In this document: in pieces, positions 6,562 through 62,366 of the stretch
Numbering within the stretch: the first letter of the stretch is position 1
How the letters are laid out: every line of letters starts with the position of its first letter
NCBI GenBank assembly: GCA_030390025.1
Contig: CM059431.1
Span: 123,940,001-124,004,000 of the forward strand
Source of the DNA: Squalus acanthias
Lineage: Eukaryota
Length of the DNA: 64,000 nucleotides
Reading direction: 5' to 3'
Position numbers and translations under genes: made by a program
The notes under the pieces: model-generated
What the model was told of the DNA's origin: nothing
Database searches by the model: none
The model's input: the letters and a program-made list of their open reading frames with translations, nothing else

Positions 6562-6651
6562 GGTTTTCCTGCTTGAAGGAATTTTGCTCCTGAGAAAAAT
6601 TTATCAGGTTCATTTGTCTTATTTTTGATACTGCAACATTTCCAACACTTA

Positions 6652-7830: not shown

Positions 7831-8139
7831 ATGAGATAGCACATGGCATTTGCACAGAACAACCACATCATTACAGCCAGCTCGCAGCCCCTATCACCGG
7901 GCAAAGCTCAAATGAGAAACATCACAAAATGTGCTACGTTGAAATAAACATTTATTATTCTGCACAACTCTCTCTTATCAAACACAACCAATAATAAACA
8001 AACACACAATATATGAACAAACACAATTGGTTCTTAGCAAACGGAACTATTTCTTACCAAACTGAACAATATATTTACAAACACATCAACTGTTGTACAC
8101 ACACTCCCCCAATTTGCTATTTTATTTACTGGGCCTTCC

Positions 8140-22920: not shown

Positions 22921-25900
22921 TATTGCTGCTTTGCAACTTACTAGCCATTAATCACTACATAATTAAATCTATGATCAAATTAACATCTTCTCTGTTCATT
23001 CTGGTTCTTTTAGATTCAGATAAAACTGAGGTAAATTTACGTAGAAAGGCTGCCCTTCTATTTGTGGCGTAAATAGTTATGAGTTTTTTAATTAGAGTGC
23101 CACTTTGAACTGTTGTTCACACAATTCTGGATTCTGCGTCACAATAAATAATTGTGAGATGATGACATTTAGCTAATAGTATTCATTCTGCTTGGTCATC
23201 AGCCCCATCACTGAAGCATTTCATACTTTTCTGTGTTTCTCAGAGAAAGTACTTCAGGGCTGTTTCGATGTCCTGAAACTTAAGAACTGCCTTATTTGTA
23301 ATCAGTGCAGAAACATTCTTCTGCAGCCTTTTTAATTGGACCATTAATCCGGAAAATCTTCCATGTAAGGACAGAAAAAGGATTATTAACCTGTTTCAAC
23401 CCTGCTACAAAAATATATTGGATTGGATTAAAACTTTGAATATGGTGCAGTAGATGTTGTTTTCTGAATGTTTAGCCCTAATTCGTGAAAATTAACCCTT
23501 AACAAATTTAGAAATAATTTTCACAATACACAGAGTATAAAATTGGCAGAAAACTATTAATACAAATGAAAGATTCTTAAAAAGTGCTGTATTTGAATAT
23601 GTAAATGATAACATTGATTAACTGCAAAATGTGTAACACATAAAACAAACTATTAAATACGTGAATGCATATACATTTTCACAGCAAAAAAAATCTTTTT
23701 TTCCCTTTTGTTTCATTTTTTAATTTCCTCACCAAATTTCTCCTTTCCTCTGAAGATGTTGACTCCTTGCTGGGGTCCGATTCCACAGGTGGCAGGTGTC
23801 CTCTGGGACTTCTCCCAAGCAGAGAACATCTGTAGAAGTTCAGAAGGATTTGAGAGCGGTTAATCTATATCTCTTAAAAGTAATCCCCATTTCTTTTTCA
23901 AGTTACTTTCAAGACTTCAATTTTATCTTGAGATCTGAGGAATGTTCAGTTGCTGACAACAATTGCAGATGTAATGTGAAAAATAAGATAAATACAATGA
24001 TAGCAAATTTATTGCATGGAACAGCTGATTAACATAAGAACATAAGAACATAAGAAATAGGAGCAGGAGTAGACCAATCGGCCCCTCGAGCCTGCTCCAC
24101 CATTCAATGAGATCATGGCTGATCTGATCCAACCTCAACTCTAAAGAACACAAGAAGCAGGAGCAGGACCAGGCCACTCGGCCCCTGGGCCCGCTCCGCC
24201 ACCCACAGGGCCTTGACCGATCCGAACTCAAACTCATGTCCAATTTCCAGCCCGCTCCCCGTAACCCCTGATTCCCTTTACTTCTAGGAAACGGTCTATT
24301 TCTGTTTTAAATTTATTTAATGAAGTAGCTTCCACAGCTTCCTGGGGCAGCAAATTCCACAGACCCACTACCCTCTGAGTGAAAAAGTTTCTCCTCATCT
24401 CAGTTTTGAAAGAGGAGCTCCTTATTCTAAGATTATGTCCCCTAGTTCTAGTTTCACCCATCATTGGGAACATCCTCACCGCGTCCACCCGATCAAGCCC
24501 CTTCACAATCTTATATGTTTCAATAAGATCGCCTCTCATTCTTCTGAACTCCAATGAGTAGAGTCCCAATCTACTCAACCTCTCCTCGTATGTCCACCCC
24601 CTCATCCCGGAATTAACCGAGTGAACCTTCTTTGTACTGCCTCTAGAGCAAGTATGTATTTTCTTAAGTATGGACACCAAAACTGTATGCAGTACTCCAG
24701 GTGCGGTCTCACCAATACCCTATACAACTGTAGCAATACCTCCCTGTTTTTATATTCTATCCCCCTAGCAATAAAAGCCAACATTCCATTGGCTTTCTTG
24801 ATCACCTGCTGCACCTGCATACTAACTTTTTGATTTTCTTGCACCAAGACCCCCAGATCCCTTTGTACTGCAGTACTTTCCAGTTTCTCGCCATTAAGAT
24901 AATAACTTGCTCTCTGATTTTTCCTGCCAAAGTGCATAACCTCACATTTTCCAATATTGTATTGCATCTGCCAAATCTCTGCCCACTCACCCAGCCTGTC
25001 TATATCCCCTTGTAGGTTTTTTATGTCCTCCTCACTCTCTACTTTCCCTCCCATCTTTGTATCATCTGCAAACTTTGATATGTTACACTCGGTCCCCTCC
25101 TCCAAATCGTTAATATAGATTGTAAAGAGTTGGGGACCCAGCACCGACCCCTGCGGAACACCACTGGCTACTGGTTGCCAGTCCGAGAATGAACCATTTA
25201 TCCCAACTCTCTGCTTCCTGTTAGACAACCAATCCTCCACACATGCCAGAATATTACCCCCAATCCAGTGATTTTTTATCTTGAGTAATAATCTTTTATG
25301 TGGCACCTTGTCGAATGCCTTCTGGAAGTCTAAATACACTACATCCACTGGTTCCCCTTTATCTACCCTGTACGTTATGTCCTCAAAGAACTCGAGCAAA
25401 TTTGTCAGACATGACTTCCTCTTCATAAAGCCATGCTGACTTTGTCCTATTAAATTATGTTTATCTAAATGTTCCGATACTGTCTCCTTAATAATAGACT
25501 CCAAAATTTTACCCACCACAGATGTTAGGCTAACTGGTCTATAATTTCCAGCCTTCTGCCTACAACCCTTTTTAAATAAGGGTGTTACATTAGCAGTTTT
25601 CCAATCTGCCGGGACCTTTGCTGAGTTCAGGGAGTTTTGGAAAATTATTACCAAAGCATCCACAATTCCTACTGCCACTTCCCTCAAGACCCTAGGATGT
25701 AAGCCATCAGGTCCAGGGGATTTATCCGCCTTGAGTCCCATTATTTTACTGAGTACCAATTCCTTAGTGATTTTAATCATATTTAGCTCCTCCCCCCCTA
25801 GAGCCCCCTGTTTGTCCAGTGTTGGGATAGTCTTAGTGTCCTCTACCGTAAAGACTGAAACAAAATATTTGTTCAGCATTTTTGCCATCTCCATGTTTCC

Positions 25901-27449
25901 CACCATTAATTTCCCGGTCTCATCCTCTAAGGGACCTACGTTTGCCTTAGCCACCCTTTTTCTTTTTATATAACTATAGAAACTCTTGCTATCTGTTTTT
26001 ATATTTTTTGCTAATTTATTTTCATAATCTATCTTCCCTTTCTTAATCAATCCTTCAGTTACTTTTTGCTGTCTTTTGAAGACTTTCCAATCTTCTATCC
26101 TCCCACTAAGTTTGGCTACCTTATATGTCCTTGTTTTTAGTTGGATACTATCCTTAATTTCTTTACTTAGCCACGGATGGCTGTCATTTCTTTTACACCC
26201 TTTTTTCATCAGTGGAATATATATTTTTTGAAAGTTGTAAAATAACTCCTTAAATGAACACCACTGCTCATGTACCGTCTTACACTTTAATCTATTTTCC
26301 CAGTCCACTTTAATCAATTCCGCTCTCATACCATCATAGTCTCCTTTATTCAAGCTCAGTACGCTTGTCTGAGAACCAATCTTCTCACCCTCTAATTGGA
26401 TATGGAATTCAACCATGTTATGGTCACTCATTCCAAGGGGATCCTTAACTAGGACATTGTTAATTAATCCTGACTCATTACACAGGACCAGGTCCAAGGT
26501 TGCTTGCCCCCTTGTAGGATCAGTTACATACTGCTCAAGAAATCCATCCCTAATACACTCAATAAACTCTTCCTCAAGGCTGCCCTGCCCAATTTGATTT
26601 GTCCAGTTAATATGATAGTTAAAATCCCCCATAATTATAGCTGTTCCCTTATTACATGCCCCAACTATTTCCTGATTAATACTTCTTCCAGCAGAGTTGC
26701 AACTATTAGGAGGCCTATATACTACTCCCACTAGTGTTTTTTTCCCTTTATTATTCCTTATCTCCACCCAAACTGTTTCATTATCCTGATCCTTTGACCC
26801 AATATCATTTCTCTGGAATACAGTGATTCCTTCCTTTATTAACATAGCTACCCCACCTCCTCTTCCTTCCTGTCTGTCCTTCCTGATTGTTAAATACCCT
26901 GGCATATTTAATTCCCAGTCGTTGTCACTCTGCAGCCATGTTTCTGTAATGGCCACAAGATCATACCCATACGTAGTTATTTGTACCGTCAATTCGTCTA
27001 TTTTGTTACGAATGCTGCGTGCATTCAGATAAAGAACTTTCAAATGTGTTTTGCGACACTTACTTCCTGCTTTTTCCTTATTTAACACTTTGGGGTAGAA
27101 ATTAGGTCGCTCCCCATTTGGGGCGCAAATATCGTCTGGACGCAAAAATTAGCGCCTGGCGCTAATTATCGGCACTGACTGGAAACTTCACTTTTACCGC
27201 CCCGGGAGGTGAGTGGAGCACTAAAGCAGGCACTGCACACCTGTCTTAAGGCGCAAAGGCCAAGGAGTGAGGCGCTAACTCAGCGCGCGAGCGCAGCGCA
27301 GCTGCTGCCAGTTAGCGAGGGAACACAGACACACTGGCGCCGGCCACTTCTTAAAGCGGGGAGGGCCACTTGCTCCCCAGCCACACCCTGCTCATTGCAG
27401 CCTTGAATCTCAGCCTGGAGAGACCTGTGAATCCATTTTGCTGCCAAGC

Positions 27450-29327: not shown

Positions 29328-29621
29328 GAGGTGTGACAAAATGCTGGTCATTTTTTTATTAAAGGCCGAGGTTCATGGTCCAACTTTTGTTTAGTGTTTT
29401 GGACATTATCTCCAGGTTGTGAGAACCAGTTATGTTATTGACTGTTTTTTTGTGTTTATTTCTATGAGTTTGTCATGAGGAATTGACACACACAGAGTTT
29501 GTAAAATAAATAAGTTTCTGTATTCAAAATATACATGGCTGGTGGTTGGAATTATTGGTGCCTTGGCCGGCTTAGGGGTTGCCTGCTGGGTTGATTAATG
29601 TTGGTAGCAATGGCAGGGGCC

Positions 29622-30782
29622 CTAGAAGCGGCTTGCTATTGGCCGTTGACGGACGGCTCTTGCAGTTTGACCATTGTGGGCCACCCTCCCGCCTTGGTGC
29701 TGCTGATGATCATCGTCCTCGTCCTCTTCCTCCTCTTCCTCCTCCTCCTCTGGTGGTGCTCCAAGGCCTGGTGGCATTGGCTGGGTCCTGAGGATTGCCA
29801 TGTTATGCAACATGCAGCACATGACTACGAAGTTCGATACTTGCTCAGGCGAGTACTGCAGGGCTCCTCCGGAATGGTCCAGACAGCGGAACCATTGTTT
29901 CAGCACGCCGATTGTGCGCTCAATAATGTTCCTGGTTGCTTGATGGCTTTCATTGTACCGCAGCTCAGCAGGGGTGTTGGGCGTACGGAGCGGTGTCATC
30001 AGCCAGGTGCTCAATGCATACCCCTTGTCCCCGAGAAGCCAACCAACTGGCTGATGCGGTGCCTCGAAAACTTCTGCCACAGTAGTCTGGCGCAGGATAA
30101 AAGCATTGTGGCAGCTGCCAGGATAGTGGGCATTGACAGCGAGTATCAGCTGTCTGTGGTCACAGACCAACTGGACATTCAAGGAATGGAACCCCTTTCT
30201 GTTCCTGAATTCCTCTGCATTCTCTCGCGGAGCACGCAAAGCCACATGCGTGCAGTCAATGGCGCCCTGCACCATGGGGAAGCCCGCTACCCTCGCAAAG
30301 CCCAGAGCGCGGTCACGCTGCTTGTCTGGGGTCATAGGGAAAGAGATGAACTCTCGTCTCCTTCTGAAGAGGGCATTTGTGACCTGCCGGATGCAGCAAT
30401 GCACCGCGAACTGGGAGATATTGGCGAGGTCCCCAACAGCAGCTTGGAATGAGCCAGTGGCGTAAAAGTTCAAAGCCACTGTGACCTTCACTGCCACCGA
30501 CAGAGACATCCTGGACCTCAGTTGAGGCTGCAGATCTGGGTGCAGCAGGTGGCAGAGCTCAGTGACCACCTCCTTGCTGAATCGCAGCCTTCGCAAACAC
30601 AGCTCCTCGGACATATGGATGTAGGAGAGCTGTTCACGATATACCCTGGGAGGGTAAGCTCTCCTGTACATGCGCCTGATGGCCCTCCTCCGTCTGGCCA
30701 TCATTGCCACTCTCTCTCTGCGTCTCTGTATCCTCCGATTCAGCTAGAGCAGGACGACAACCCCAATCAGTGCAGCCCCCAT
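29622..30782 (-). CDS. Harbinger DDE transposase; TAG at codon 13, then an open 362-aa frame (ATG ATG at 30704)
   Basis: ATG GGG GCT at 30782 is in frame with ORF 29622-30710. GAIDCTHV, CHNAFIL (conserved HD is HN here), LGDKGY, IIERTIGVLK, CCMLHN and an acidic tail. Confidence 0.85.
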
Positions 30783-31378
30783 ATTCTCTTTGCAAGCAAA
30801 GTAATGAGGGACAGCAACTAAAGTAGCAACAAAGTTAGGATCAATAGGCAAAACTACCTCACAAAGCGTTGAGTCAATGTAGAAGTCTCTCTCTCTCTCT
30901 CTCCGAAACTCTCTCACTCTCTCAGAACGAGTGGTGCATAAATGTCGACCACAGAAAAAGACAGGAAGAGGCCCCCTTTAAATAGCGCCCCCCCCCCAGC
31001 CCCACAGCGATTGATAGCGTTCCAGTCTTCCGGTCGTTGGAAGCGCCAGGCGGCAAGGCAGGGGGCGCCACTCAATTTCCACTCCGGGGCGCCACAAGGG
31101 CGTTGCACCATGGAATGACGTCACAATCTGCGCGCGCAGGTGGTCGCAGCGGTAAGTTTTAGCGCCGCCGCACAATCTCTAGTTAAGTTCCCGAGCGGCG
31201 CAAACATCGCTGCGCCCGGGCGTTAGCGGCTTTGCGCCCCATTAGCGCCCTCTTAAGGCGATAACGGGAGGCGCAACCAACTGAATTTTTACCCCTTTAC
31301 CTTTTACTCCATACCTTCTGTCCCTTCATGACATGCTTTCCTCTGTCTCCCTGCTCAGGTTCCCAACCCCCTGCCACA

Positions 31379-32326
31379 TTAGTTTAAATCCTCCCCAACA
31401 GCACTAGCAAACACTCCCCCAAGGACAGCGATCCCGGCCCTGCCCAGGTGCAGACCGTTCGGTTTGTACTGGTCCCACCTCCCCCAGAACCGGTTCCAAT
31501 GTCCCAGGAATTTGAATCCCTCCCCCTTGCACCATTCCTCTAGCCACGTATTCATTTGAAATATCCTCCTATTTCTACTCTGACTAGCACGTGGCACTGG
31601 TAGCAATCCTGAGATTACTACCTTTGAGGTCCTATTTTTTAATTTACCTCCTAACTCCCTATATTCTGCTTTTAGGACCTCATCCCCTTTTTTACCTATA
31701 TCGTTGGTGCCTATGTGCACCACGACAGCTGGCTGTTCACCCTCCCCCTCCAAAATGTTCTGTAGCCGCTCCAAGACGTCCTTGACCCTTGCACCAGGGA
31801 GGCAACACACCATCCTGGAGTCTCGGTTGCGGCCGCAGAAACGCCTATCTATTCCCCTTACAATTGAGTCCCCTATCACTATAGCTCTTCCACTCATTTT
31901 CCTCCCAGCCTGTGCAGCAGAGCCGCCCATGGTGCCAGGAAGTTGGCTGCTGCTGCCTTCCCCTAAGTCATCCCCCCCAACAGTATCCAAAGCGGTATAT
32001 CTGTTTGAGAGGGGGATGGCCACAGGGGACCCCTGCACTACCTGCCTGCACCTCCTACTCTGCCTGGTGGTCACCCATTCCCTTCCTGCCTGTACACCCT
32101 TCACCTGCGGTGTGACCAACTCACTAAACGTGCTGTCCACGAGGTTTTCAGCATCGCGAATGCTCCAATATGCATCCAGCCGCAGCTCCAGCACCGCAAT
32201 GCGGGCTGTCAGTAGCTGCAGTTGGATACACTTCCCGCACACATGGTCGTCAGGGACACCGGAAGGGTCCCTGATTTCCCACATAGAGCAGGAGGAGCAC
32301 AACACGGGGCTGGGCTGTCCTGCCAT
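31379..32326 (-). CDS. CR1 ORF1p: Zn finger / leucine zipper + SGNH esterase domain, intact 315 aa
   Basis: CSSC-x14-CGKC, heptad leucines, LSNRY, VIGDSIVR, CLPGA, HIGTND, NGLHL. Confidence 0.92.
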   Translation of the reverse strand: MAGQPSPVLCSSCSMWEIRDPSGVPDDHVCGKCIQLQLLTARIAVLELRLDAYWSIRDAENLVDSTFSELVTPQVKGVQAGREWVTTRQSRRCRQVVQGSPVAIPLSNRYTALDTVGGDDLGEGSSSQLPGTMGGSAAQAGRKMSGRAIVIGDSIVRGIDRRFCGRNRDSRMVCCLPGARVKDVLERLQNILEGEGEQPAVVVHIGTNDIGKKGDEVLKAEYRELGGKLKNRTSKVVISGLLPVPRASQSRNRRIFQMNTWLEEWCKGEGFKFLGHWNRFWGRWDQYKPNGLHLGRAGIAVLGGVFASAVGEDLN

Positions 32327-39893: not shown

Positions 39894-41553
39894 TGTAAGG
39901 TTTCCAAAATTTTGCAGATGCCCAACCTAAGGAAAAGGGACTTTGGAACTACCTCAGAGTGAAAAAATTGCATTTGGGCCTAACCTAAGGAATATAAGAC
40001 CAAAAACCAAGTTTTGGCATTTTAAAACTATGTCTGGGCCTGTAAAGGAACAAGAAAGTGGGTTCGATCTCTGTAAAAGCAGTTTTGGGAATTGCAGTTA
40101 ATTGCACTGTCTGGGGAACCGGGATGACCTCACTCAAGCCCCAGCAGGCATTAACATTTTGACAATAGACCCTGGGAGAAGACAGTCCCACCCAAAATAA
40201 AAGGCCCCATCAACCCGATTACAGGGCCCATCAGAAAACTTGCATAATCCAAATCACTCAGGATCATTCTTTAGAAAAGACCGAGTCCAGCCTAGAAACC
40301 CAAAACACGAAACCAATCACCAGTGATCAGCCAAGGAGATCGACAGGATGCAAACCATCCCAAAACCCATTTGACACTTACAGAGCAGTTACTGGTAACA
40401 GGCCCGCCAAAAATCAGACAATGAACTGAGTAGATTTGGCGGGTAGATAAGGCCATGTTCAATGGGTGAGATTGAAGGACTGTTAAAAACCCAGTTAACG
40501 CGCTAGTAAGTCGTTACCGATTTACGAGCCCGCCAAAAACCAGACAATGAACTGAGTAGATTTGGCGGGTAGATAAGGACACTTCAATTTAGTATAATTG
40601 AAGGCCCCTCAAGCAGTTCAAAGTCAGCAGTCAGTCGCAACTGGTGGTCATCAGAAGAAGAAGAAACCAGGAAGAAGACAAACCGAGCTGGAAGCGAGTC
40701 GGCATTGCTCACCACTCAGACACACCTGAGTCCAGCCCATGAAGATACCACCTCGACGGACCTCTAAAAATGGTCCCAACACAGTCACCCGGAGCAACAA
40801 CCAGCAAGAAGACATCGACGGCTCCACAAGGCCGACCGACACACTAGACAAGGCCTAAAGCCATCGCGGAAACCAAAGGCCTCACGAAACCAACAACCGC
40901 ACATTACCCCCAACTGACCGGGTAATAGCAGGCCACCACGACCAACAAAGACCAACTCAAGGAAAGAAAACCCAAAGAACCGCAGAGCTTCCACACTACA
41001 AACTACTCCTGACTTACCCCTGGGTAAGATTTCTACCAAAAGACTCTAAACCCTACTGCTGAACTAAAGAAATTGGGTACTCACCTGATAGATCCAAAAC
41101 GTACCCTACCACATCAGTGGACTCGCGAAGACTGACCAGAGACTCAGGTGAAGTCCTCTACCGCGTATGGGGTACGGCAGACACTAACCGCCATAAACAG
41201 CGAACCCCAAAACCGCGATTTAGCCCAACTGTCAAAGGATTGGTGAGCATTATCCCTGGTCCTTCAAAACCTAACTTAGCTAGTAAAGTGGGGTTGGGAG
41301 TGGTGAAGTATTGTTCTACTGTCATTTCCCTCGCTTGTACCGAAGTGTTCCCCACCTTTAGAGTGTTAAGAGTGTTATTATTTGTGTCTTACCTTTTAAT
41401 AAAGATTGAAGTTCTTACATCAAACTCAGTTGTCTGCTGCACCTTTTTATCAAAACCCCCAAATAAGTCCAAGGTCTAGAACCAATGGAGTGGGAACGAT
41501 TCAAACTGCTCAGAAGTCAGAGGTAAAGCTGACACAAACCACCACCCCCTACA
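39894..41553 (+). repeat. 5' LTR (1660 bp)
   Basis: Direct repeat of 45064-46699 with scattered substitutions and a 23-nt indel. CCAAT near 40313, TATAAT near 40593 and AATAAA at 41398. Confidence 0.95.
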
Positions 41554-41555
41554 TA

Positions 41556-43379
41556 ATGGCGACCACCGCACGAGCTTGGCAAAAGGGATGTGATGCAGTG
41601 GACACTGTTTTTGAGGAAGAAATGAAGATGGAGGAAAGGATTTCCTCCTATGTGTTCGAAAAGATGAACATAACTAAGAAGTAGGTACTCAGTCTGCTAC
41701 GTGCTGAAAGTCCAATAGACGCTGCAGCTAAGTGGACTGAGAGCAAAGACCACAGGAAATCTGTGGAAAAGGCCATCTGGTTGATCTGCTCCCAGAAACA
41801 GATACAACTGTTGGACAAACATGTAGAGACACTCAAAGCATAACTGCAGGAGTCTGCTCAGCTGTCTCAAGCAAGGGCCCTAGCAGGGGAAACACTACTG
41901 AACTAGCTAACAGCCCAAGACCAGGAAAGGAGGCAGATAGTGGAAACGCACAGGAACAGTAAAGAGTATTTTCAGTGTCAGGTCACCGAAGCAAAAACCA
42001 GTGAACTAGTGTTGAGGGAAGAGAACACCTGCCTTGCCAGGCAAGTAAAGGAACTAGAGGAGAGGTTAAGAGATGTCCAGGCAGCTTACAAGGTAGCAAG
42101 CTCAAGGCGGTATGAAACGGGAGAGCACGGCTACTGCCAGAAACAAATAGAAAGTTTGAACCTTGCTCTGTCCAGAGCCAAATGCATGGTATGCCTGTTA
42201 AGCCCGGGTACGGCCCGAGTGGACCTGGAAGTGCAGGGGAAAACTGTTTGAACGCCACCTGTGGCACCGGGGATCGACCCGGTTGGGCAGCAGGAAGGAA
42301 GGGCGATTTGTGAGGCTGGCAAGGCAGAGCACACCACCACCTGTGGCGCCGGGTTTTAACTTGGTTTGGCAGCAGGCAGAGGTGGGTGAACCAATGCAGG
42401 AGAGGTCGGAGCCGGGGCCGATGTGCCCGGTCCGGCAGCAAAAGTTTGGCCCACCTGGCTGTGGTGGGGGTTAATGACCCCTTGAAAGCCAATTCGTGGC
42501 TCCCCACGGTACCCAACAGCTTAGTGCTTTGGTAAGCCACCTGGGCAAACTCACCCAAAAAGGGGACCCCTCAGTCCACTTCATGGAAGTGGAACAGGCA
42601 GCGGGCATCAATGACTGCGATGATGCCGAGATGGCCAAAATGCTCCTGTTCTCACTGGACAGCAAAATCTACCATTCCCTTTCCGCAGAGAGTAAAAGAG
42701 GGCAGGGTGGATATGCTGCTATCAGAGAGGGAGTTCTGGAGGCCATGGGTATGAACGATGGTAGTCCTTTCTCCAGGGTGGAGAAGACTACACAGCTAGT
42801 AGGGGAGACCCCACAGGCTTTCGCAGACCGACTGTGGCCTGTGTACAGGAGTGCCTGTAACGGGGCTCTCAACAGGGCTCACCTGAATCAGGATGAGCTG
42901 GCCCACTGGCTCCAAAGTCTGGTGGCGAACAGCTTGCCACGGATCAGAGCCAAGGCCGAGCTGTGGTTTGACCCAAGGGACCCCCGGGGCACCGAAGAGA
43001 CAGTGGTCAGACAACTGACCCTGGCTTACCGAAACGATAGGGGGACAGAGGAGCATCCACCCAAGGGGAAGGTGCATGAGTTAAAACCCAGCCAGGGTAA
43101 GAAACAGTGGCACCAGTAAGGGGGTAACCCTTCCGACATGAAGCGTAACTGCTTCGGGTGCGGGAATAGTGGGCATTGGAGGAAGGACTGTAGGAATCCG
43201 TGGAAGGATAACCTAGGAAAGAATTCTCCAGCTCTGCCCGAAAGGTAGAAACCCCGACCTCTCCCCACACGTTAGACTCGGTCGTAAAAGCGATTCGAGC
43301 CTTGTTAACTGGCCCAGGAAAGGTAGCCACAGCCACTGGGACAGTAACCCCATCTGCCCCCCCTAACGCAGACCTATGA
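41556..43379 (+). pseudogene. gag: coiled-coil N-terminus, capsid with MHR-like motif, CCHC knuckle, C-terminal PSAPP
   Basis: MATTARAW...; QLVGETPQAFADRL; CFGCGNSGHWRKDC (43149-43190); TPSAPPNADL* ending at TGA 43377-43379. Several in-frame stops and frameshifts. Confidence 0.8.
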
Positions 43380-43703
43380 CTAGAACCAGCGCAGCCTGTC
43401 TACCTGTGTTCCCCGGAATACGATGGTAAGATGGGGGTGGAGACGGTGCATGGGAGACATTTAGGGGACACCGGAGCTTCCAGCACGGTGGTCCATTCGG
43501 AAGACCCGACCAATTCACCCATGTCGAACCAGGTCCCATTTAGCCTAATGGGGTTCACAGGGAACGAGCAGGCTGGGGCAATGTCCAAACATTTGGACAT
43601 AGATTCCATGCCACATGGGAGGGTAACCAAAAGGTCGACAAGTTGGCCAAGCAGGGGGCCAGGGAAGGAGAGTTCTGGGATCCCTATAAAGCAGGTTCGG
43701 TAG
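43380..43703 (+). pseudogene. Aspartic protease remnant, in frame with the gag stop
   Basis: LGDTGASSTVV active-site motif and LMGFTG flap-like motif. Confidence 0.75.
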
Positions 43704-45063
43704 CCACAATCCGGGACAAGGGAGGCACACAGGGTAGCTTTGCCCCCGGACTTAAAGCAGGTCCAAGCCCAGGAACCTGTCCTTAAGGCCGTCCTGGTAA
43801 AGAGAGCGAATGGGGAGTCCATAGAAGGTCCGTTCAGGGCAGCGGACGAGATTTTAAAACAGATTCACTGGCAAGCAGCCAGTAACCTGGGGAGCCAGCA
43901 CCAGAAAAATCGGCTGCTGTTAGAACCCCAGAGAACCCACGAGTGGGAGATTAACCAGTGGAAACTGTTTAAACCCGAGAAAAGGGAACAGTCAGCAAAG
44001 GTGGACCACCCCAAAGTTAGAAAGCCCCAGCCAGCAGCTGTGGCAGACTCACAGGCTGCAGCGGCGGGGACAGTGGCTTGTATCACAGGAGGGTACACTC
44101 CACCGATTATGTGGGACTCAGGCAGTGGCCAGAGTCCTGAGAAGGTCTCCTCGCACACCACAGCCTAAACTGCCATGATCACCGGTACATCAGTGGTTCA
44201 GCCCAGCAGGGGCTGCGACCCGAAAGAGAATACCCAAAGTCAGGGGTCATTCTAAGAAGAGGGATCCCCAGCCTGCGGCCTCATGCTGCGAGGTACCCAC
44301 AGGACAGGACAGGGACGCAGCAGCCACACCAAAGGGGGCAGTGTGCTGTAGCACAGGAGGGGACACTCCCGGGATTGTCAGGGATTCAGGGAAAACCTCA
44401 GTTGCTCTAAGAAGGACTCTCAGGGTCCTGCGGTACAGGCCACCTTACGCCCAGGCGTACCGGCTGCTCAGAAGCTGCCCAAGGCAGAGGCCGTACAGGA
44501 TTTAGCTGGGCCATCCAGAGACGGGCGGCGTATGTACAGAGTTTAATGTATTTAGGTGTGTTTTACGGTTTTGATAGTTTTAGTTTTAGTGAATTATTTT
44601 TACTTAAGTAAGTTTAAATTTTTCAAGACTCGATCACCTGTCAAGCCAAAGAACCTTCTCGGGACATGGCTATCTGTTTTGTGTGTCCCTACAGAGAGGA
44701 AATCGGCATGCCGATCCTGACATGAGAAAGCATGGGACCAGCATTACAATAAAGCCTGTGGCCAGGTTTAGGGCGAGCCTTAATTTGTTTTTATTAAAAT
44801 GAAAAAAGTTTTGTGATCGTGTATTAGTTTTACTATGTATGTACTGTGTCTTCCAAGTGGTGCAGGGGTGTTGGACCCCCTCCGTGTTTGGATATGAATG
44901 TAACTGATTCTTACCTGTATGTATTGGAACACTACACCAACAAGGGGAATGTATGTTTTGGGGTTTTAGTCTAGGTAATACAGGGGAAGGTTGGGTTTTG
45001 AGGATCAGGAATTTTATCCACCCAGAACAATACTGTAGCGACTTAAAGTATTGCAGGAGGGAC

Positions 45064-46699
45064 TGTAAGGTTTCCAAAATTTTGCACATCTCCAACCTAA
45101 GGAAAAAGGACTTTGGAACTACCTCAGAGTGATAAAATTGCATTTGGGCCTAACCAGGTTTTGGCATTTTAAAACTATGTCTGGGCCTGTAAAGGAACAA
45201 GAAAGTGGGTTTGACCTCTGTAAAAGCAGTTTTGGTTATTGCAGTTAATTGCACTGTCTGGGGAACCGGGATGACCCTACTCAAGCCCCAGCAGGCATTA
45301 ACATTTTGACAATAGACCCTGGGAGAAGACAGTCCCACCCAAAATAACAGGCCCCATCAAACCGATTACAGGGCCCATCAAAAACCTGCATAATCCAAAT
45401 CACTCAGGACCATTCTTTAGAAAAGACCGAGTCCAGCCTAGAAACCCAAAACACGAAACCAATCACCAGTGATCAGCCAAGGAGATCGACAGGATGCAAA
45501 CCATCCCAAAACCCATTTGACACTTACAGAGCAGTTACTGGTAACAGGCCCGCCAAAAATCAGACAATGAACTGAGTAGATTTGGCGGGTAGATAAGGCC
45601 ATGTTCAATGGGTGAGATTGAAGGCCTGTTAAAAACCCAGTTAACGCGCTAATAAGTCGTTACCGATTTACGAGCCCGCCAAAAACCAGACAATGAACTG
45701 AGTAGATTTGGCGGGTAGATAAGGCCACTTCAATTTAGTATAATTGAAGGCCCCTCAAGCAGTTCAAAGTCAGCAGTCAGTCGCAACCGGTGGTCATCAG
45801 AAGAAGAAGAAACCAGGAAGAAGACAAACCGAGCTGGAAGCGAGTCGGCATCGCTCACCACTCAGACACACCTGAGTCCAGCCCGTGAAGATACCACCTC
45901 GACGGACCTCCAACAACGGTCCCAACACAGTCACCCAGAGCAATAAGCAGCAAGAAGACATCAACGGCTCCACAAGGTCGACCGACACACTAGACAAGGC
46001 CTAAAGCCATCACGGAACCCAAAGGCCTCACGAAACCAACAACCGCACATTACCCCCAACTGATCGGGTAATAGCAGGCCACCGTGACCAACAAAGACCA
46101 ACTCAAGGAAAGAAAACCCGAAGAACCGCAGAGCTTCCACACTACAAACTACTCCTGACTTACCCCTGGGTAAGATTTCTACCAAAAGACACTAAACCCT
46201 ACTCCTAACCAAAGGAAATTGGGTACTCACCTGATAGATCCAAAACGCACCTTACCGCATCAGCAGACTCGCGAAGACTGACCAGAGACGCAGGTGAAGT
46301 CCTCTACCGCATACGGGGTACGGCAGACACTAACCGCCATAAACAGCGAACCCCAAAACCGCGATTTAGCTCAACTGTCAAAGGATTGGTGAGCATTATC
46401 CCTGGTCCTTCAAAACCTAACTTAGCTAGTAAAGTGGGGTTGGGAGGAGTGAAGTATTGTTCTACTGTCATTTCCCTCGCTTGTACTGAAGTGTTCCCCA
46501 CCTTTAGAGTGTTAAGAGTGTTGTTATTTGTATCTTACCTTTTAATAAAGATTGAAGTTCTTTTATCAAACTCAGTTGTCTGCTGCACCTTTGTATCACA
46601 ACCCCCAAATAAGTCCAAGGTCTAGAACCAAGGGAGTGGGAGCGATTCGAACCGCTCAGAAGTCAGAGGTGAAGCTGACACAAACCACCACCCCCTACA
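45064..46699 (+). repeat. 3' LTR (1636 bp)
   Basis: Direct repeat of 39894-41553. Confidence 0.95.
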
Positions 46700-53789: not shown

Positions 53790-55250
53790 AACTCAGAATT
53801 CGATGAATGAGGGAATTCGGTGCATTGAGGAAAGTGGTGCTGTTCTGATATTTTTAAAAGCAAGGAGCGGTCCAAGCGAGCGAGCGTGAGACAGCGATAC
53901 CTGAGAGCTGAGGTCTAGAGACAGTAATTAAAATTAATAGTTTAAACAAGATACTAATTAGCTTCTGAAAGAGGGAATAGACATTTTTTAGATCGTGAAT
54001 GGGCAGCTGATACCTGTTGCTTGCAATTCCTGCGCCATGTGGGAACTTCAGGACACTTCGTGTGTCTTGGGGGACCATGTGTGTAGGAAGTGTTTCCAGC
54101 TGCTTGAGCTCGAGCTCAGGGTTTCCGAGCTTGAGGAGCAGCTCGAGTCACTGGGAAGCATCAGGGAGGCTGAGAGTTTCCTGGACCGTACGTTCCAGGA
54201 GGTGGCCACCCCACAGGCAGAGAGAGTTCAGGATAGTAAATGGGTGGTCATCAGAAGAGGCAGGAAGTGCAGGAGTCTTCGGGGTGTGTGTTACTCTCAA
54301 ACCGATATGCAGCATTGGAAACTGCTGGGAGTGATGACACCTTGAAGGAGTGCAGTCCAGACCATGGCACCAATGAGCAAGGGACTGCCCAGGGGGGATC
54401 AGCAAAGCATAGAAATGCAGTCGTTATAGGAGATTCCATAGTATGGGGGACAGACAGGCATTTCTGTAACCGTCACTGTGAGTCCCACATGGTGTGTTGC
54501 CTCTCTGGTGCCAGGGTAAAGGACATCATGGAGAGGGTGCAGAATATTCTGCATGGAGAAGGGAGTGAGCCAGAAGTTGTGGTACACACCAGTACCAACG
54601 ACATAGAGAGGGCAGGTACTGAGGTCCTACAGTCAGACTTTGAGGAGCTAGGGAGGAAGTTAAAAAGTAGGACTTCAAAGGTAGTAATCTCTGGATTACT
54701 CCCAGTGCCACGTGCCAGCGAGAGTAGAAATAGGAAGATAGGGAGGATCAATGCGTGGCTTGAGGCATGGTGCAGGAGGAGGGCTTCAGATTCTTGGGGC
54801 ATTGGGACCAGTTCTGGGGCAGGAGGCACCTATTCAAAAGGGACGGGTTGCACCTCAACAGGACTGGGACCAATGTCCTCGCGGGGAGGTTCACTAGTGT
54901 GGTTGGGGAGGGTTTAAACTAAATTGGCAAGGGTGTGGGTACCAGCATATAGAAGTAGAAAAGAGGAATAATGTGCATAAAGGAGGGAGCGTGTTGGATA
55001 GTACTAGAGAAGGAAGGAGTATCATATTAGATAGGAGCAGACTACGAAGGACTACAAGGAATACAAAGACAGGTTTGGAATGCATGTATGTAAACGTACA
55101 AAGTGTGGTGAATAAGGTTGGTGAGCTACAAGCACAATTAGCCATGTGGGAATATGCTGTAGTGGCAATAATGGAAATGTGGTGAGGACTGGGTGCTTAA
55201 TATTCACAGATACAAGGTGTTCAGAAAAGATAGGGAAGGAAAAAAGGGAG
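53790..55250 (+). mobile_element. CR1 5' portion (UTR, frameshifted ORF1, start of ORF2), 3'-truncated
   Basis: CNSC-x14-CRKC, LSNRY, VIGDSIV, HTSTND, ...GEGLN*, then CMYVNVQSVVNK and YKVFRKDR. Confidence 0.9.
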
Positions 55251-57420
55251 GTTTTTTGCTTGAAGATATTTTCCAGCAGTGGGGAGCTGTGGGGGGTGAG
55301 AGTGGGGTGGGGGTGGGGGCGGGGGTTGGCAGTGGGCGGGGAGCTGAATTGATCTTTAACCCAACCCCTCTATGTCACAGAGGCATGCATGGGGACTTCA
55401 CTGGGAAATTCTGCCTCTTATGCTATCCTTGGGCCGATGGCAGGATTCACTCCAGCTAACTGCTGGCCTGAGACCTGAACAAAGGCCCTGAATCTTTACT
55501 CAGGAAAGCTGCTATGGAGAAATCCACTCACCACCTTTATGGAGTGGTGTCTGACCACTTCACACAAGTACTGTCCAACCTGAAGCACATGGCATTTCCA
55601 CAGCCACTTGCAACAGAGTCCCCCTTAACAGAGTCCCTAGTCTAGCTATAGGTTCTCTGGGGAATGGTGTAACTTTTAGAGAGACCTTAGGCTCGAATGT
55701 CCATTGCTTTACCTTGCCACGGTTCACCATGCTGGAGAATCAGTTGCACAGGACCCAGACACAGGGTTTCAACAACCTTAATACCGCTCTGCGATTTGCT
55801 CCAGCACAAATCATAAGACATTCTGAGGTAACACCTAGCAGCATTAGCATGGCATTTACCACTCCATTCAAATGATGTCACACCTTGCCAGAAAGATGTC
55901 ACAGCCAGGCAGCCACTGTAGTGATGCCATCAGTTGTAGAGCCATCTGATTCACATGTATAGAGGTACAGGGCCTCTGCTTTCTAAAAGGATCCTTTCAG
56001 ATTGAGAAACTGCCACCTCACTTCCGTCTCCCACTGGAGTTGCATGACCACGAAAAAAACTCCAGTGGCAGCAACGCAGGTCAGATGCTAAAAGTTGCCC
56101 AATGCAATCTCGTTCTGTGATTTTCAGACCCTTGTGCTAGTCGCACGCATGTCCAATGGATGCATTGCAACGCAATGTTTTCTCTTATATGTTCATAACG
56201 TAGTATGCACAATGCAGAGATTTCCTCCAATTGCTATTTCTAGCAAAATCATAAACACATTCTTTTAGAATGCTTTTGAAATTTCACTAAAAATAGCAAA
56301 TATAGAAAATCGTCTGGTATTATTTACAATGTCACTAACACACAAGCACTAGAAGAAATCATCTCCCATGATTTATTGAAACTAGCATAGGGCGGGAAAC
56401 AAAAGTGCAACAAAGCTTGGATGTGATAAAAAAAACATTAATGTCATCTTTTCCTAGGCACATTGGCCTGGAAATTCCTGGGGCCCCGTTACACCGGTGT
56501 TAAGTGCAACAGAGTGAAACTCCCCATCCGCCTTAGCCCCAGGCTGGAAATCCCATCCCAAATCTTGGGTCCAGGGTCATTTGAATATCTGTGATGGTTC
56601 TCCATTAACTGCAAGGGTGCATCAGCAATGCTTGCCCCAGCTCGACCCGGTCCACCCTTCTAAGGCAGTGTGGCATCTTGCCACTCTGACTGAAGCCCAA
56701 CTGGACTGAAGAATTTTGTTTATGAGCTCTGCTTCCACTGGAGCCACTCTAAAGCTTAAGAAGGTAATTCATTCTCTCCAGCAGGCTGTACTAGATAGAG
56801 AGTAATGTCAAGTTGGGGTGATATACTGGCCGCTATTTTGCCAGTGCTCAGCGGACCTGATTGGTGGCAGGTCAGCTGTGAAATTTAAAATGATTGACAT
56901 CGAGTCAGGAACCCACTGTCAAAACGCACACACCTGCATTTCCCGATGTTGGGTCTGCCAGCGCTGAGCAGACCCGACAGGCAGCGGCGGGGGACCCAAT
57001 TCAAATCATTAGTGGCTTGTTTGCAGCCACTTATCAATGCTTTTTTTCCCAGCTTTTTAACTTTCACATGTCTCCCACTGGTTTCACGCTGTGCCTGGAC
57101 CTCGTCAGTGAAGCTGAGGTGGGAGGTCAGTGGCCATTGAATCAGCTGATGAGTTGACAGCTTCAAATGTCAACTCAAAGCTCCCAGCTAATTCAGATAT
57201 CTTCCCTTAAGCACTAGCATCTCTAAACAGCATTTCCACTACAGATTCAGGATGCTGCAAGTCTTTACACAAGTCTCCATGCAATCTGACCTCGTTACGT
57301 CTCCCACTATTGACAGATCGCTTCTGTCATCTCTACTCCACCTGCCACCTATTCCATCAGCATGGGTGCACTTTATACTCTCTCACCTTGGTCCTCAAAA
57401 TCCCACCACGATCACTCACC

Positions 57421-60400
57421 CGAGACTCCAGGATGGTAATTTGCCTCCCTGGTGCAAGGGTCAAGGATGTCTCGGCGCGGGTGCAGAACATTCTGGAGGG
57501 GGAGGGGGAACAGCCAGTTGTCATGATACATGTTGGTACCAACGACGTAGCTAAAAAAAGGGAAGAGGTCCTACAAGTAGAATTTAGGGAGTTAGGAGCC
57601 AAGCTAAAAAGTAGGACCTCGAAGGTAGTAATCTCTGGATTACTACCAGTGCCACGTGCTAGTAAGAGTACAGAGAACAGGATAGTTAGGCTAAATACGT
57701 GGCTTGAGCAGTGGTGTAAGAGGGAGGGTTTTAAATTTTTGAGGCATTGGGACCAGTTTTGTGGTAGGTGTGACCTATACAAAAGGGACGGTCTACACCT
57801 GTGCAAAGATGGAACTGATGTTCTCGGGGTAAATTTTGATAAAGCAGTTCGGGAGCATTTAAACTAGTATGGCAGGGGGCTAGAAACCCATGTAGTGAAA
57901 TAGAGGAAAGTGAAAGGCAGACAGAAATAAATGGTAAAAAGGAGAGGAACAAAAAACAAAGGGCCAAACTAATTCATAAAAAATGTGAGCATAAAAAAAG
58001 CCTGAGGGTTTTATACCTTAATGCGAGAAGCATCAGGAACAAGGTAGATGAATTAGCTGTGGAAATAGAGGTTAATAATTATGATCTAATTGGGATTACG
58101 GAAACATGGTTGCAGGGTGAGCAGGGCTGGGAGCTTAACATACAGGGGTATTCAGTATTTAGGAAGGATCGACAAAAAAGAAAGGGAGGAGGGGTAGCAT
58201 TGCTGGTAAAAGAGGGGATAAATGCAATTGAAAGGAAGGATATTAACTCAGTTAATACAGAATCTATATGGGTGGAGCTAAGAAATAGCGAGGGGCGAAA
58301 AACATTAATAGGAGTGGTATATAGGCCTCCAAATAGTAAAATAGAGGTTGGGGAGGGCATCACGAGGGAAATTAGAGAAGCGTGCAATAAGAGCACAGCT
58401 GTCATCATAGGTGACTTTAACTTACATATAGATTGGACTAGCCTAATCAGTAAAAATAATGAGGAGGAGGAATTCCTTGAGTGTTTAAGGGATGGTTATC
58501 TGGATCAATATGTCGAGGAACCAACTCGGGAACAGGCTATATTGGACTGGGTACTGTGCAATGAGAAGGGACTAATTAGTAATCTTGTTGTACGGGGACC
58601 CTTGGGTCAGAGCGATCATAACATGATCGATTTCTCACTCGAAATGGAGAGCGAAGAAATTGACTCGGAGACTCAGGTCCTGAATTTAAACAAGGGGAAT
58701 TATGATGCCATTAGACGGGAACTGAGTAGGTCTGATTGGACAACGTTCCTGGGAGGACTGGAGGTAGATAAACAATGGCAAGCATTTAAAGATAGAATGA
58801 CAAAATTGCAAAAATTGTTTATACCAATCTGGCATAAAAGGAAATCTAAAAAGGTGACTCAACCGTGGATAACAGGGGAAATTAGAGACAGCATAAAATC
58901 CAAAGATAGGGCGTATAAAATAGCCAAAAAACGCGCCAGAGCGGAAGATTGGGAACAGTTTAAGATAGAGCAAAGGAGGGCAAAGGGCTTAATCAAGAAG
59001 GGCAAAATAGCTTACGAAAGCAAGCTGGCGGAAAATATAAAAACTAACTCCAAAAGCTTTTATAAGTATATCAAGAGGAAAAGACTGGTGAAAACCAAAG
59101 TTGGTCCATTGCAGTCAGATACGGGGGAATATATAATGGGAAATAAGGAAATGGCAGACCAACTAAATGCATACTTTGGGTCAGTCTTTACGAAGGAAGA
59201 CACAAAAAACCTCCCTGGGATATCGGGAAAAATAGGGACATTGGCAAAGGAGGAACTGACGCAAATCAATATCTCTAAGGATATGGTGTTAAGGAAGCTA
59301 AAGGGATTGAAGGCGGACAAATCCCCAGGGCCTGATAACATGCATCCTAGGGTACTGAAGGAGGTGGCCCTAGAGATAGCGGATGCACTAAGCATGATTT
59401 TTCAGAATTCATTAGACTCGGGAACAGTGCCCATGGATTGGAGGGTAGCTAACGTTACCCCACTATTCAAAAAGGGGGGTAGGGAAAAAGCAGGTAATTA
59501 CAGACCTGTAAGCCTTACATCAGTTGTGGGCAAAATGCTGGAGTCCATCATTAAGGATGAAATAGCCGAGCACTTAGCAAATGGGGACAGGATAGGACAG
59601 AGTCAACATGGATTTACAAAGGGTAAATCGTGCTTGACTAATCTATTGGAATTTTTTGAGGGAGTAACTGGTAAAATAGATGGGGGAGAGCCAGTAGATG
59701 TGGTGTACCTGGACTTCCAAAAGGCCTTCGATAAGGTCCCACATAAAAGATTAGCATGGAAAATTGAAGCTCATGGGATAAAGGGGAAAGTATTGACGTG
59801 GATAGAGAACTGGCTGTCAGATAGAAAACAGAGAGTTGGAATAAACGGCTCATTTTCTGAATGGCAGGCAGTAACAAGTGGGGTACCACAGGGATCTGTC
59901 CTGGGTCCCCAGCTGTTCACAATTTATATTAATGACCTGGATCAGGGAGTCGAATGCAGCATTTCCAAATTTGCAGACGACACTAAACTAGGAGGGGGGG
60001 TGGGCTCAGAGGAGGAGACCAGGAAGCTCCAGAGCGATTTGGACAGACTGGGTGATTGGGCGGATAAATGGCAGATGCACTATAATGTGGACAAGTGCGA
60101 AGTTATCCACCTTGGGTGCAGGAACGGGAGGGCAAATTATTATTTAAATGGCAATAAATTGGGAGAGGGGGAAGTACAGAGAGACCTGGGTGTTCTTGTA
60201 CACCAGTCACTGAAGGCGAGCATGCAGGTGCAACAGGCGGTCAAGAAGGCAAACGGTATGCTGGCCTTCATAGCAAAAGGGTTGGAATACAGGAACAGGG
60301 ATACCTTGCTGCAGCTGTACAGGGCACTGGTGAGACCACACCTCGAGTACTGTGTACAGTTTTGGTCGCCTCATCTGAGGAAAGATGTTCTTGCCATGGA

Positions 60401-60901
60401 GGGGGTGCAGCGGCGATTCACCAGGCTGATACCAGGAATGGCGGGATTGACCTATGAGGAGAGACTATGTAGTTTAGGGATGTACACACTGGAGTTTAGA
60501 AGATTGAGAGGGGACCTCATAGAAGTGTATAAAATTCTGACAGGTCTAGACAGATTAGATGCAGAAGGAATGTTTCCCTTGGCGGGTGAGAACAGAACTA
60601 GAGGACATAATTTAAGGATAAGGGCTAAACCATTTAGGACAGAAATGAGGGGGAATTTCTTCACTCAGAGAGTGGTGAACCTGTGGAACTCATTGCCACA
60701 GAGGGCAGTGTACGCCAGCTCATTAAATATATTTAAGAGGGAATTAGATATATTTCTACAGGCAAAAGGGGTTAAGGGTTACGGAGAGAAGGCGGGGACG
60801 GGATACTGAATTGAAGGATCAGCCATGATCTCATTAAATGGCGGAGCAGGCTCGAAGGGCCGGATGGCCTACTCCTGCTCCTATCTTCTATGTATCTATG
60901 T
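57421..60901 (+). mobile_element. Young 5'-truncated CR1 LINE (3' half of ORF1, intact ORF2, 3' tail)
   Basis: RDSRMVICLPGA...HVGTND...DGLHL...EHLN* (stop 57865-57867). Tail TCTATGTATCTATGT. Confidence 0.95.
57858..60809 (+). CDS. CR1 ORF2 (APE endonuclease + reverse transcriptase), uninterrupted; start defined here by the putative frameshift site
   Basis: The frame is open from 57843 to TGA 60807-60809. LRVLYLNARSIRNK, ITETW, GDFN, SDHN, YLDFQKAFD, GVPQG, FADD. The first in-frame ATG is at 58623. Confidence 0.9.
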   Translation, partial: FKLVWQGARNPCSEIEESERQTEINGKKERNKKQRAKLIHKKCEHKKSLRVLYLNARSIRNKVDELAVEIEVNNYDLIGITETWLQGEQGWELNIQGYSVFRKDRQKRKGGGVALLVKEGINAIERKDINSVNTESIWVELRNSEGRKTLIGVVYRPPNSKIEVGEGITREIREACNKSTAVIIGDFNLHIDWTSLISKNNEEEEFLECLRDGYLDQYVEEPTREQAILDWVLCNEKGLISNLVVRGPLGQSDHNMIDFSLEMESEEIDSETQVLNLNKGNYDAIRRELSRSDWTTFLGGLEVDKQWQAFKDRMTKLQKLFIPIWHKRKSKKVTQPWITGEIRDSIKSKDRAYKIAKKRARAEDWEQFKIEQRRAKGLIKKGKIAYESKLAENIKTNSKSFYKYIKRKRLVKTKVGPLQSDTGEYIMGNKEMADQLNAYFGSVFTKEDTKNLPGISGKIGTLAKEELTQINISKDMVLRKLKGLKADKSPGPDNMHPRVLKEVALEIADALSMIFQNSLDSGTVPMDWRVANVTPLFKKGGREKAGNYRPVSLTSVVGKMLESIIKDEIAEHLANGDRIGQSQHGFTKGKSCLTNLLEFFEGVTGKIDGGEPVDVVYLDFQKAFDKVPHKRLAWKIEAHGIKGKVLTWIENWLSDRKQRVGINGSFSEWQAVTSGVPQGSVLGPQLFTIYINDLDQGVECSISKFADDTKLGGGVGSEEETRKLQSDLDRLGDWADKWQMHYNVDKCEVIHLGCRNGRANYYLNGNKLGEGEVQRDLGVLVHQSLKASMQVQQAVKKANGMLAFIAKGLEYRNRDTLLQLYRALVRPHLEYCVQFWSPHLRKDVLAMEGVQRRFTRLIPGMAGLTYEERLCSLGMYTLEFRRLRGDLIEVYKILTGLDRLDAEGMFPLAGENRTRGHNLRIRAKPFRTEMRGNFFTQRVVNLWNSLPQRAVYASSLNIFKRELDIFLQAKGVKGYGEKAGTGY

Positions 60902-62366
60902 AACACCAGCATCACCAGGCACACCAGCAGCACCAACAACCACACCAACCTTCTCCACAATCACCTAACGCTGCACAGGACAGAGGGCATCAGCACCTGA
61001 CCACATTGCTGCCCGGGACACCAGGGATGGCCTCACCACGGCCACATTTACTTCACTTGACGCTGCACACCCTGGCTGCCACATATTGCGCCAGGTTGGC
61101 ACCACCCCAAACCAACAACATAAAGCATCCCTACAATGCCCAAGCCATTCCTTCCACACTCATGACCATTGTGGGGGGTATCGTTATGCCTCACCATTCA
61201 TTGCAACTCACTAAGTAACTTCCAAAGGTGCACACAAATCTGTCCAAGAAAGCAAAGTGTTGAAAATAAAGTTATCAATGTTTGACAGCACATTAACAGA
61301 AACTTTACATGGACATTGGCTAAAACACCCAAGTGCCTACCATTATGGGTTGTTAGTTGGTATGATTGGACAAGGGTGAGTGTGAGGGGTGGCTAGTGAG
61401 ATGGGGAAGTGATAATGTAGATAGAGAGAGATGGGTGGAGGTGCAAGGTAAGTTGGTGTGAGTAAGGATGTGCAGGAGTAGGGTAGGGAAGGCAGAGTGA
61501 TGGGGAGGTGATGAGTGGCACAGCAGGATGAGGTTGAGTGTGGCTTTGCAGTAACATTTTGTGATTTACTGAGATCATTGAAAGGTTTGCGCCACTGCAG
61601 CCTGGTCCTCCTGACGACATCCCTGCTTGTGTCCTCCTGTGCAATGTGCAACCAGGCTGCATTGGTCTCCTGGGGAGGACTATTCTGCCCATTGGAAGGG
61701 AAGAGAACCTCCCTGCGTGCTGTGACTCCCTCCATAAGCATATGGATGGAGCCATGGGAGAGCCTGGGTGCAGCCGTGCACCTCTGTGTAGTGCTTGCCA
61801 GTGCTTGCAGCACCTCAATGCTGTAGAACACTGACAGCACAAATGTCAAAGTAAATTTGCAGATGGTCCCTTTAAAGAAACCGGCTGATGACGCATCATC
61901 AAATGACATCATCAGACCCGCTTCCTTCCATTGGCCGGGAAATTTGCTGGGTGGACTTAACAAGCCCAATCAGGGGAAAGTCATATCGGAGGCTGGGATG
62001 GAGCCAACAGCAGGGCCGAGACCCGCCACGGACGTCACCCGCCACGGACCCGCCGAGGTAGGGAAAATCGTGGCCACTGTGCAAGATGTACCAACTGCTT
62101 CTGATCTATATAAATGACCTGGGTTAAGAACCTCAGTGTAAGTTGGTCAAATTCGCAGATGATGCTAAACTGAGTAGGGGGCATTGTAATCTGATGAAGT
62201 AATTGAGAAACCATAGTGGGCAGAACTATGGCAGATTAAATTTATTACCGATAAGTGCACACATTGGAAGAAATAATGGAGAAGAGTCTTATGCAATGAA
62301 GCAGCTGGACAAACGAAAGACTTAAAAAGATTCGAGAGTGACAGTATTCTCCACACTGCTCATTTC

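Follow-up and report, generated by a model that had tools for sequence, protein, structure and literature searches.

Retroviral gag-pol genes, the coronavirus IBV and arteriviruses shift ribosomes by −1 at slippery heptamers, U_UUA_AAC in IBV and G_UUA_AAC in arteriviruses, according to the available text of PMC5009743, and the CR1 LINE junctions described here share such heptamers and their phase, along with a short overlap between a structural-type ORF upstream and a polymerase downstream. CR1 departs from these viral sites in having a LINE as host, in showing no detectable stem or pseudoknot 5–9 nt downstream, and in a stop codon that usually abuts the heptamer. A non-LTR precedent for a −1 shift into ORF2 is provided by the Dictyostelium elements TRE5-A and TRE3-A, which, according to a figure legend (PMC5911963), require it for ORF2 translation; these elements differ from CR1 in being amoebozoan and in carrying another ORF1, and the legend names neither a heptamer nor an experiment. 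An esterase ORF1 like that of CR1 is described for the zebrafish L2 element ZfL2-1 in the available text of PMC3905857. ZfL2-1 differs from CR1 in relying on frame-0 read-through at a leaky UGA-C rather than on a −1 shift before UAA or UAG. Kajikawa et al. are said to have concluded in 2012 that its ORF2p is probably an ORF1-ORF2 fusion made by stop read-through. Bombyx SART1 and human L1, for both of which termination-reinitiation is argued, have a bicistronic LINE RNA like that of CR1; SART1 makes free ORF2p, is not known to have a slippery heptamer and re-initiates via UAAUG coupling, a motif echoed by the TAATG of a CR1 family that we call family B. Human L1 also differs from CR1 in making free ORF2p and in having no slippery heptamer (PMC5009743, available text).

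In the literature searched, the mode of CR1 ORF2 translation is unsettled. The 1997 papers of Haas and of Kajikawa on chicken and turtle CR1 reportedly describe a short ORF overlap, and they may have proposed a frameshift. Our search, with the primary CR1 papers of the 1990s lying outside its reach, returned no report of a CR1 frameshift; frameshift, overlap and readthrough go unmentioned in the available main text of a 2026 CR1 survey (PMC13343379) and of PMC3905857, and CR1 goes unmentioned in that of PMC5009743. A frameshift is probably new for CR1, the mechanism itself being known. In most vertebrates the dominant retrotransposons belong to the CR1 group, and in Chondrichthyes CR1 carries an ORF1 and L2 lacks one, as stated in the available text of PMC13343379.

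The window, by which we mean the whole 64-kb stretch of DNA that was analysed, carries on its forward strand the 3' part of a CR1 ORF1 with an SGNH/GDSL esterase domain (57420..57867; Pfam Lipase_GDSL_2, E=2e-10). The ORF2 frame, counted from the heptamer (57858..60809, +), encodes a linker, an APE endonuclease (~58020–58619) and a reverse transcriptase (~59478–60110), with Pfam Exo_endo_phos and RVT_1 both above cut-off. CR1 LINEs typically end in short 8-nt repeats without poly(A). The 3' UTR of this copy (60810..60902, +) likewise ends in short TTCTATGT/ATCTATGT repeats of 8 nt, at 60885–60902, poly(A) being absent. An APE endonuclease and reverse transcriptase in ORF2, an esterase-type ORF1 and a short-repeat 3' end are all features of the CR1 clade, and the nearest named ORF1 homologues come from sawshark and rays, which points to a cartilaginous fish as host.

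At the junction, the codons of the window copy read CAT-TTA-AAC-TAG. The heptamer TTTAAAC (57858–57864, +) is phased in the ORF1 frame as T-TTA-AAC, which makes it a candidate −1 shift site (U_UUA_AAC), and the ORF1 stop TAG (57865–57867, +) abuts it. The −1 frame is shut upstream by a TAA (57840..57842, +), is open from 57843 to 60809 (988 aa) and overlaps ORF1 by 22 nt; its first ATG (58623..58625, +) is residue 256 counted from the heptamer, 3' of the Pfam endonuclease domain at residues 55–254. The initial annotation, which had claimed a phased heptamer right before the ORF1 stop, an ORF2 in the −1 frame and a first ORF2 ATG past the endonuclease, is borne out on each of these points. It had also claimed the heptamer in two further copies, and both are present: one at 54913–54919 (+), with a TAA after it (54913..54922), in a decayed copy that belongs to a different CR1 subfamily, the other at 31382–31388 on the minus strand, in a family-B copy with an intact 315-aa ORF1 (31379..32326, −) whose stop overlaps an ORF2-frame AUG as TAATG. 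TTTAAAC as a word occurs 14 times in the 64-kb window, and the window 10-mer count is non-significant (9 matches at one mismatch vs 4.4 expected); position and phase are the signal.

The window copy is 5'-truncated at ~57420, where its likeness to the full-length copy L001 begins, and its full-length sister copies have a 315-aa ORF1. For this family, which we call family A, a search of 3.7 Gb of genome gave at least 40 copies that are 100% identical over 57650–58150 (501 bases; 40 of 40 scored matches). Thirty copies were fetched as the best matches, a choice skewed toward young copies; 12 have a common 5' end, ORF1 is open over its 315 aa in 11, and in 28 the ORF2 frame has no stop before the locus ends; identities are 99.7–99.96%. 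Family A is a very young CR1 family, and because its copies are young, intact and near-identical, the absence of an AUG before the endonuclease is a trait of the source element and not a result of decay.

Conservation of the heptamer extends across the genome. A heptamer-blind pattern running from the esterase DGLHL motif to TGGCARGG has 17,185 genome matches, its control 1. With a fixed anchor, TTTAAAC followed by a stop is found at 14,889 junctions genome-wide, compared with 205 in which the first heptamer base is not T and 181 in which the third base of the Leu codon is not A, variant counts in which CTA-Leu and AAT-Asn are not tallied separately; reversed-pattern controls of the three counts gave 0. 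The first 100 entries of each variant list are scattered across subfamilies; of the 100 from the third-base list, about one-third, counted by eye, are synonymous TTG and about two-thirds Phe codons, a spread and a ratio that look as decay would make them. The initial annotation had held that free synonymous variation of the heptamer, or a variable ORF2 frame, would speak against recoding; no amplified lineage with a synonymous break in the heptamer was seen in the shark genome, and each of the four shark families examined has its ORF2 in the −1 frame.

A subfamily sample, consisting of 20 places hand-picked for diversity from the heptamer-blind matches and four other copies, of which the 23 without an indel were kept, falls into 10 clusters at 90% identity and retains the heptamer in 23 of 23. 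The codon 5' of the heptamer Leu is GGT in 18 copies, GAT in 4 and CAT in 1, the codon after CTA takes 10 forms (ATG once), upstream Leu codons vary, and the ORF1 stop is TAA in 17 and TAG in 6. As a caveat, near-fixation is also seen at further synonymous positions in the shark subfamilies (His CAC, Asp GAC). The linker to the endonuclease varies in length among shark copies and keeps its frame. Family D, reached via a divergent protein and without the downstream pattern, lacks the TGGCAGGG motif and has an ORF1 C-terminus 57–58% identical; all six copies fetched, out of 127 matches, read GCT-TTA-AAC-TAA with an open −1 frame. Its ORF1 is divergent, yet the end of its linker and the start of its endonuclease look very like those of family B by eye, a likeness that suggests a module swap near the junction. 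In one genomic copy, L115 (G000:C4:149720200-149720900), a 2-nt loss inside the heptamer places ORF1 and ORF2 in a single 1,175-aa open frame. Naturally fused single-ORF families were considered and set aside as uninformative; the candidates were five longer proteins, all of them gene models from single genomes, and the L115 copy itself.

The ends of ORF1 proteins from other animals bear on whether the heptamer is conserved beyond its coding needs. Among 159 homologues with a DGLHL-type motif, the tail is at most 32 residues long in 135, of which 85 end in Leu-Asn, 10 in Gly-Asn, 2 in Lys-Asn and 38 otherwise. The residue preceding Leu-Asn is one without a U-ending codon (E, K, Q, M or W) in 1 of 85, compared with 38 and 23 of 85 for the positions one and two places earlier, and Gln precedes Gly-Asn in 9 of 10; after de-duplication at 70%, the figures are 0 of 30 and 8 of 9. 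A U-compatible residue before Leu-Asn and a Gln before Gly-Asn are what X_XXA_AAC with X = U or G predicts, and the conservation beyond Leu-Asn coding that the initial annotation had proposed to look for is in this respect present. X-Leu-Asn ends occur in sharks, rays, a frog, an eel, turtles, lizards, a snake and a bird (swallow), with Hirundo, Macrochelys, Varanus, Zootoca, Erythrolamprus, Ranitomeya and Synaphobranchus among the named hosts. Viral contigs, prokaryote genomes and plasmids held no useful junction DNA for birds, reptiles or amphibians, groups in which the junction is read from protein C-termini and from gene models. Most ORF2 proteins in the databases begin at an internal Met and fall short of the junction. 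In two gene models from the stingray Hypanus, the −1 frame gives F-K-L across the junction, which fixes U_UUA_AAY. Gene models from the frog Ranitomeya read V-K-L, implying G_UUA_AAC, an exception to the perfect XXX of the heptamer; G_UU(A) is the variant of equine arteritis virus (PMC5009743, available text).

More distant relatives were sought by a heptamer-blind scan of metagenome contigs, which gave 26 loci, 14 of them informative (of the other 12, which were excluded, 7 do not reach the ORF1 stop, 4 are broken and 1 is seemingly unrelated). In L083 and L092, a Gly-Asn end is encoded in ORF1 phase as G_GGA_AAC-TAG, and an expectation derived from proteins, that Gly-Asn corresponds to G_GGA_AAC, is in this way borne out in DNA selected blind to the heptamer. 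L084 and L093 carry A_AAA_AAC in the phase of ORF1, within an overlap of 49 nt and 40 nt ahead of the stop. In L084, L092 and L093, ORF2 stays open in the −1 frame as far as the contig reaches, and L083 offers only 29 nt downstream. The ORF1s of these four loci are 29–37% identical to shark ORF1 C-termini. As background, phased heptamers of any kind occupy 5 of 1,635 ORF1-body codons, and X_XXA_AAC 0 of 1,635. On an esterase tree, Leu-Asn ends fall in the vertebrate clade and in two further clades; the Gly-Asn ends group in a single clade, within which a Phe-Leu-Asn member is nested. With ends grouped in this way, the Fisher P of 5e-6 from this analysis overstates independence. Since L084 and L093 are also related (65–66% identical), we count three independent heptamer types and not dozens.

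Fish L2-like loci from the survey (L071, L073–L076, L079, L082, L085, L090 and L091) present TGA-C with ORF2 in frame 0 in 10 of 10, which is the read-through layout; in CR1, ORF2 lies in the −1 frame behind TAA or TAG, and ZfL2-1-type read-through does not fit it. Both layouts would yield an ORF1-ORF2 fusion. One of the fish loci, L090, reads TGA-CTAG, the mammalian read-through motif. Two CR1 ORF1/ORF2 proteins (P0009 and P0298) are filed under Pseudomonas aeruginosa and Carnobacterium maltaromaticum, on contigs of 3–4 kb, and are probably host contamination.

These junctions carry a phased X_XXY_YYZ in the zero frame within the overlap, a −1 ORF open from the heptamer and conservation beyond amino-acid needs, and distant lineages have other X_XXA_AAC heptamers in its place. 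Judged from sequence, a recoding signature in this major vertebrate LINE clade is real and strongly conserved, and we consider it likely that CR1 LINEs with an esterase ORF1 express ORF2 by programmed −1 frameshifting, as an esterase-endonuclease-reverse transcriptase fusion. This is the gag-pol-like recoding that the initial annotation had put forward, and the conservation, the −1 frame and the heptamer exchange all support it. We propose that the majority of ribosomes would decode UUA-AAC, terminate and release ORF1p, and that a minority would slip back one base on U_UUA_AAC, the Leu tRNA moving from UUA to UUU and the Asn tRNA from AAC to AAA, before going on at CUA in the ORF2 frame. For family A, the predicted product is an esterase-linker-endonuclease-reverse transcriptase fusion of ~1,296 aa (315 + 981). 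The slip itself, the fusion protein and the efficiency of the event are what we infer from these features.

What might stimulate such a slip was sought downstream. Folding of 17 sequences was no better than that of shuffles (z from −1.9 to +1.2), and these z-scores, obtained without explicit pseudoknot modelling, reveal no pseudoknot or stem-loop 5–9 nt past the heptamer, in agreement with the earlier remark that no convincing downstream pseudoknot is seen; with the folding signal absent, we set aside a downstream hairpin or pseudoknot as stimulator. All 25 scored copies have a run of at least four G that starts 8–12 nt past the heptamer, and in 18 of them the search pattern itself demanded the first two G; in the window copy, the run lies 10 nt past the heptamer (57875..57879, +). 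Of 13 shark representatives, 11 have a two-tier G-quadruplex motif that starts 6 nt past the heptamer, against 3% of the sequence windows of L001 as background; the motif is absent from family A itself and from L084 and L093. As it is missing from family A and from two of the four distant loci, a G-quadruplex is a candidate only and not a general stimulator. According to the available text of PMC5009743, G-quadruplexes stimulate frameshifting in synthetic constructs, and a natural use is not known. A long-range duplex between the tract after the stop and the 3' UTR was also considered and rejected, as it ranks only second in the element and is weaker than one with a site inside ORF2. The adjacent stop and the G-rich tract 8–12 nt downstream are the candidate stimulators. 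We advance tentatively, and at somewhat short of even chances, the fuller proposal that the shift proceeds without a classical pseudoknot, driven by the stop and the G-rich tract (possibly a natural G-quadruplex), and that this signal, as yet unreported in CR1, outnumbers every other programmed frameshift signal in many vertebrate genomes.

The alternative that survives best, unlikely as we judge it to be, is termination followed by re-initiation at or near the ORF1 stop, on an AUG or else a near-cognate codon, which would give a separate ORF2p and leave Leu-Asn kept for protein reasons. The TAATG of family B lies in the ORF2 frame and would suit this route, but an AUG overlapping the stop occurs in 1 of 23 copies, and the sister family-B copies L058 and L059 read TAAAG. 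TAATG coupling is ruled out as a general mechanism on these grounds, and families A and D have no ORF2-frame AUG overlapping or adjoining the ORF1 stop. The earlier claim that AUG initiation cannot give a complete ORF2p stands for the 57.8-kb family and does not extend to all families, the minus-strand copy having its TAATG. Farther downstream, 18 of the 25 copies whose linker is intact have an in-frame AUG ahead of the endonuclease, which would also favour re-initiation, but its positions are not conserved; this survey excluded five shark copies with a broken frame or an unmatched motif, and its motif missed L084 and L093, whose first Met lies past the endonuclease start, at 150 and 142. Family A offers a CTG just before the endonuclease (58002..58004, +) as a possible non-AUG start, the sole CTG, GTG, TTG or ACG codon in the ORF2 frame from the heptamer to the endonuclease motif, but this Leu is CTG, TTG, CTA or TTA among copies. 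AUG-independent initiation is favoured for mammalian LINE ORF2 in the available text of PMC5009743, and the folding result, with no 3' stimulator, also sits well with re-initiation. Against it stands the out-of-frame AUG that family A carries one base after the ORF1 stop, opening a mini-ORF of four codons (57869..57883, +) that would divert scanning re-initiation away from ORF2. Nor does re-initiation predict a U-ending codon before Leu-Asn, the appearance of Gln where the heptamer becomes G_GGA_AAC, or the placing of A_AAA_AAC as far as 40 nt ahead of the stop. We favour frameshifting over re-initiation because the latter gives no reason for three canonical heptamers that are all phased, including the one set 40 nt back.

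It is also conceivable, at a clearly lower probability, that the two routes coexist, the frameshift being functional while, in families with a linker AUG, re-initiation or leaky scanning is the main route and yields free ORF2p. Family D, in which 6 of 6 copies combine the heptamer with an in-frame AUG at codon 16, and family B with its TAATG would fit such an arrangement, but families that have an AUG and families that lack one retain the heptamer to the same degree, which suggests that the linker AUGs are incidental methionines.

RNA was examined by mapping two raw runs and two contig sets on L001:686-3501, all 30 bins of which were covered. No splice joint across the junction was found, and in the two raw runs no indel at the heptamer reached 3% of reads at depths of ~88 and ~103 in its bin. 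A spliced ORF2 mRNA, which the initial annotation had listed as contrary evidence, does not appear here, a weak result because the reads are mostly 88–95% alike, map to both strands and come largely from diverged copies, possibly of related species, and one that says nothing on translation. Expression of ORF2 from spliced, edited or polymerase-slipped RNA, with the heptamer as a by-product or a transcriptional slippage site, is the least probable reading, given the missing joint and indel and three different X_XXA_AAC heptamers that would fit tRNA re-pairing and not homopolymer slippage.

If −1 frameshifting is indeed how CR1 makes its ORF2 product, the active enzyme would bear a membrane-binding esterase at its N-terminus, ORF1p and fusion would be made at a fixed ratio, and a LINE would follow retrovirus-like logic. 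The annotation of CR1 ORF2 and its expression in assays would change accordingly. A single genome would contain ~15,000 copies of a coronavirus-type shift site, and CR1 would offer a natural series of shift sites that apparently work without a pseudoknot.

Several further features were observed in and around these elements. The base before the conserved TGG that follows the ORF1 stop (window 57868–57872 and equivalents) is A, G or T and never C in 23 of 23 copies, and ATG, GTG or TTG thus arises in the third frame, one base past the stop, in all 23. On the minus strand, the bulk of ORF2 of the family-B copy (24602..27091) is cut off from its junction by a 4,204-bp Harbinger/PIF-like DNA transposon at 27092–31295, which splits the CR1 ~85 nt past the junction. 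This transposon encodes a DDE_Tnp_4 transposase and a Myb/SANT gene, has terminal inverted repeats starting GGGGTA and is flanked by a duplicated AAA. Another Harbinger-like element, in which part of a transposase and a Myb/SANT frame are recognisable, lies at 6577–10025, and translations of 18648–19770 and 41063–46625 reveal fragments resembling LTR-retroelement pol and gag.
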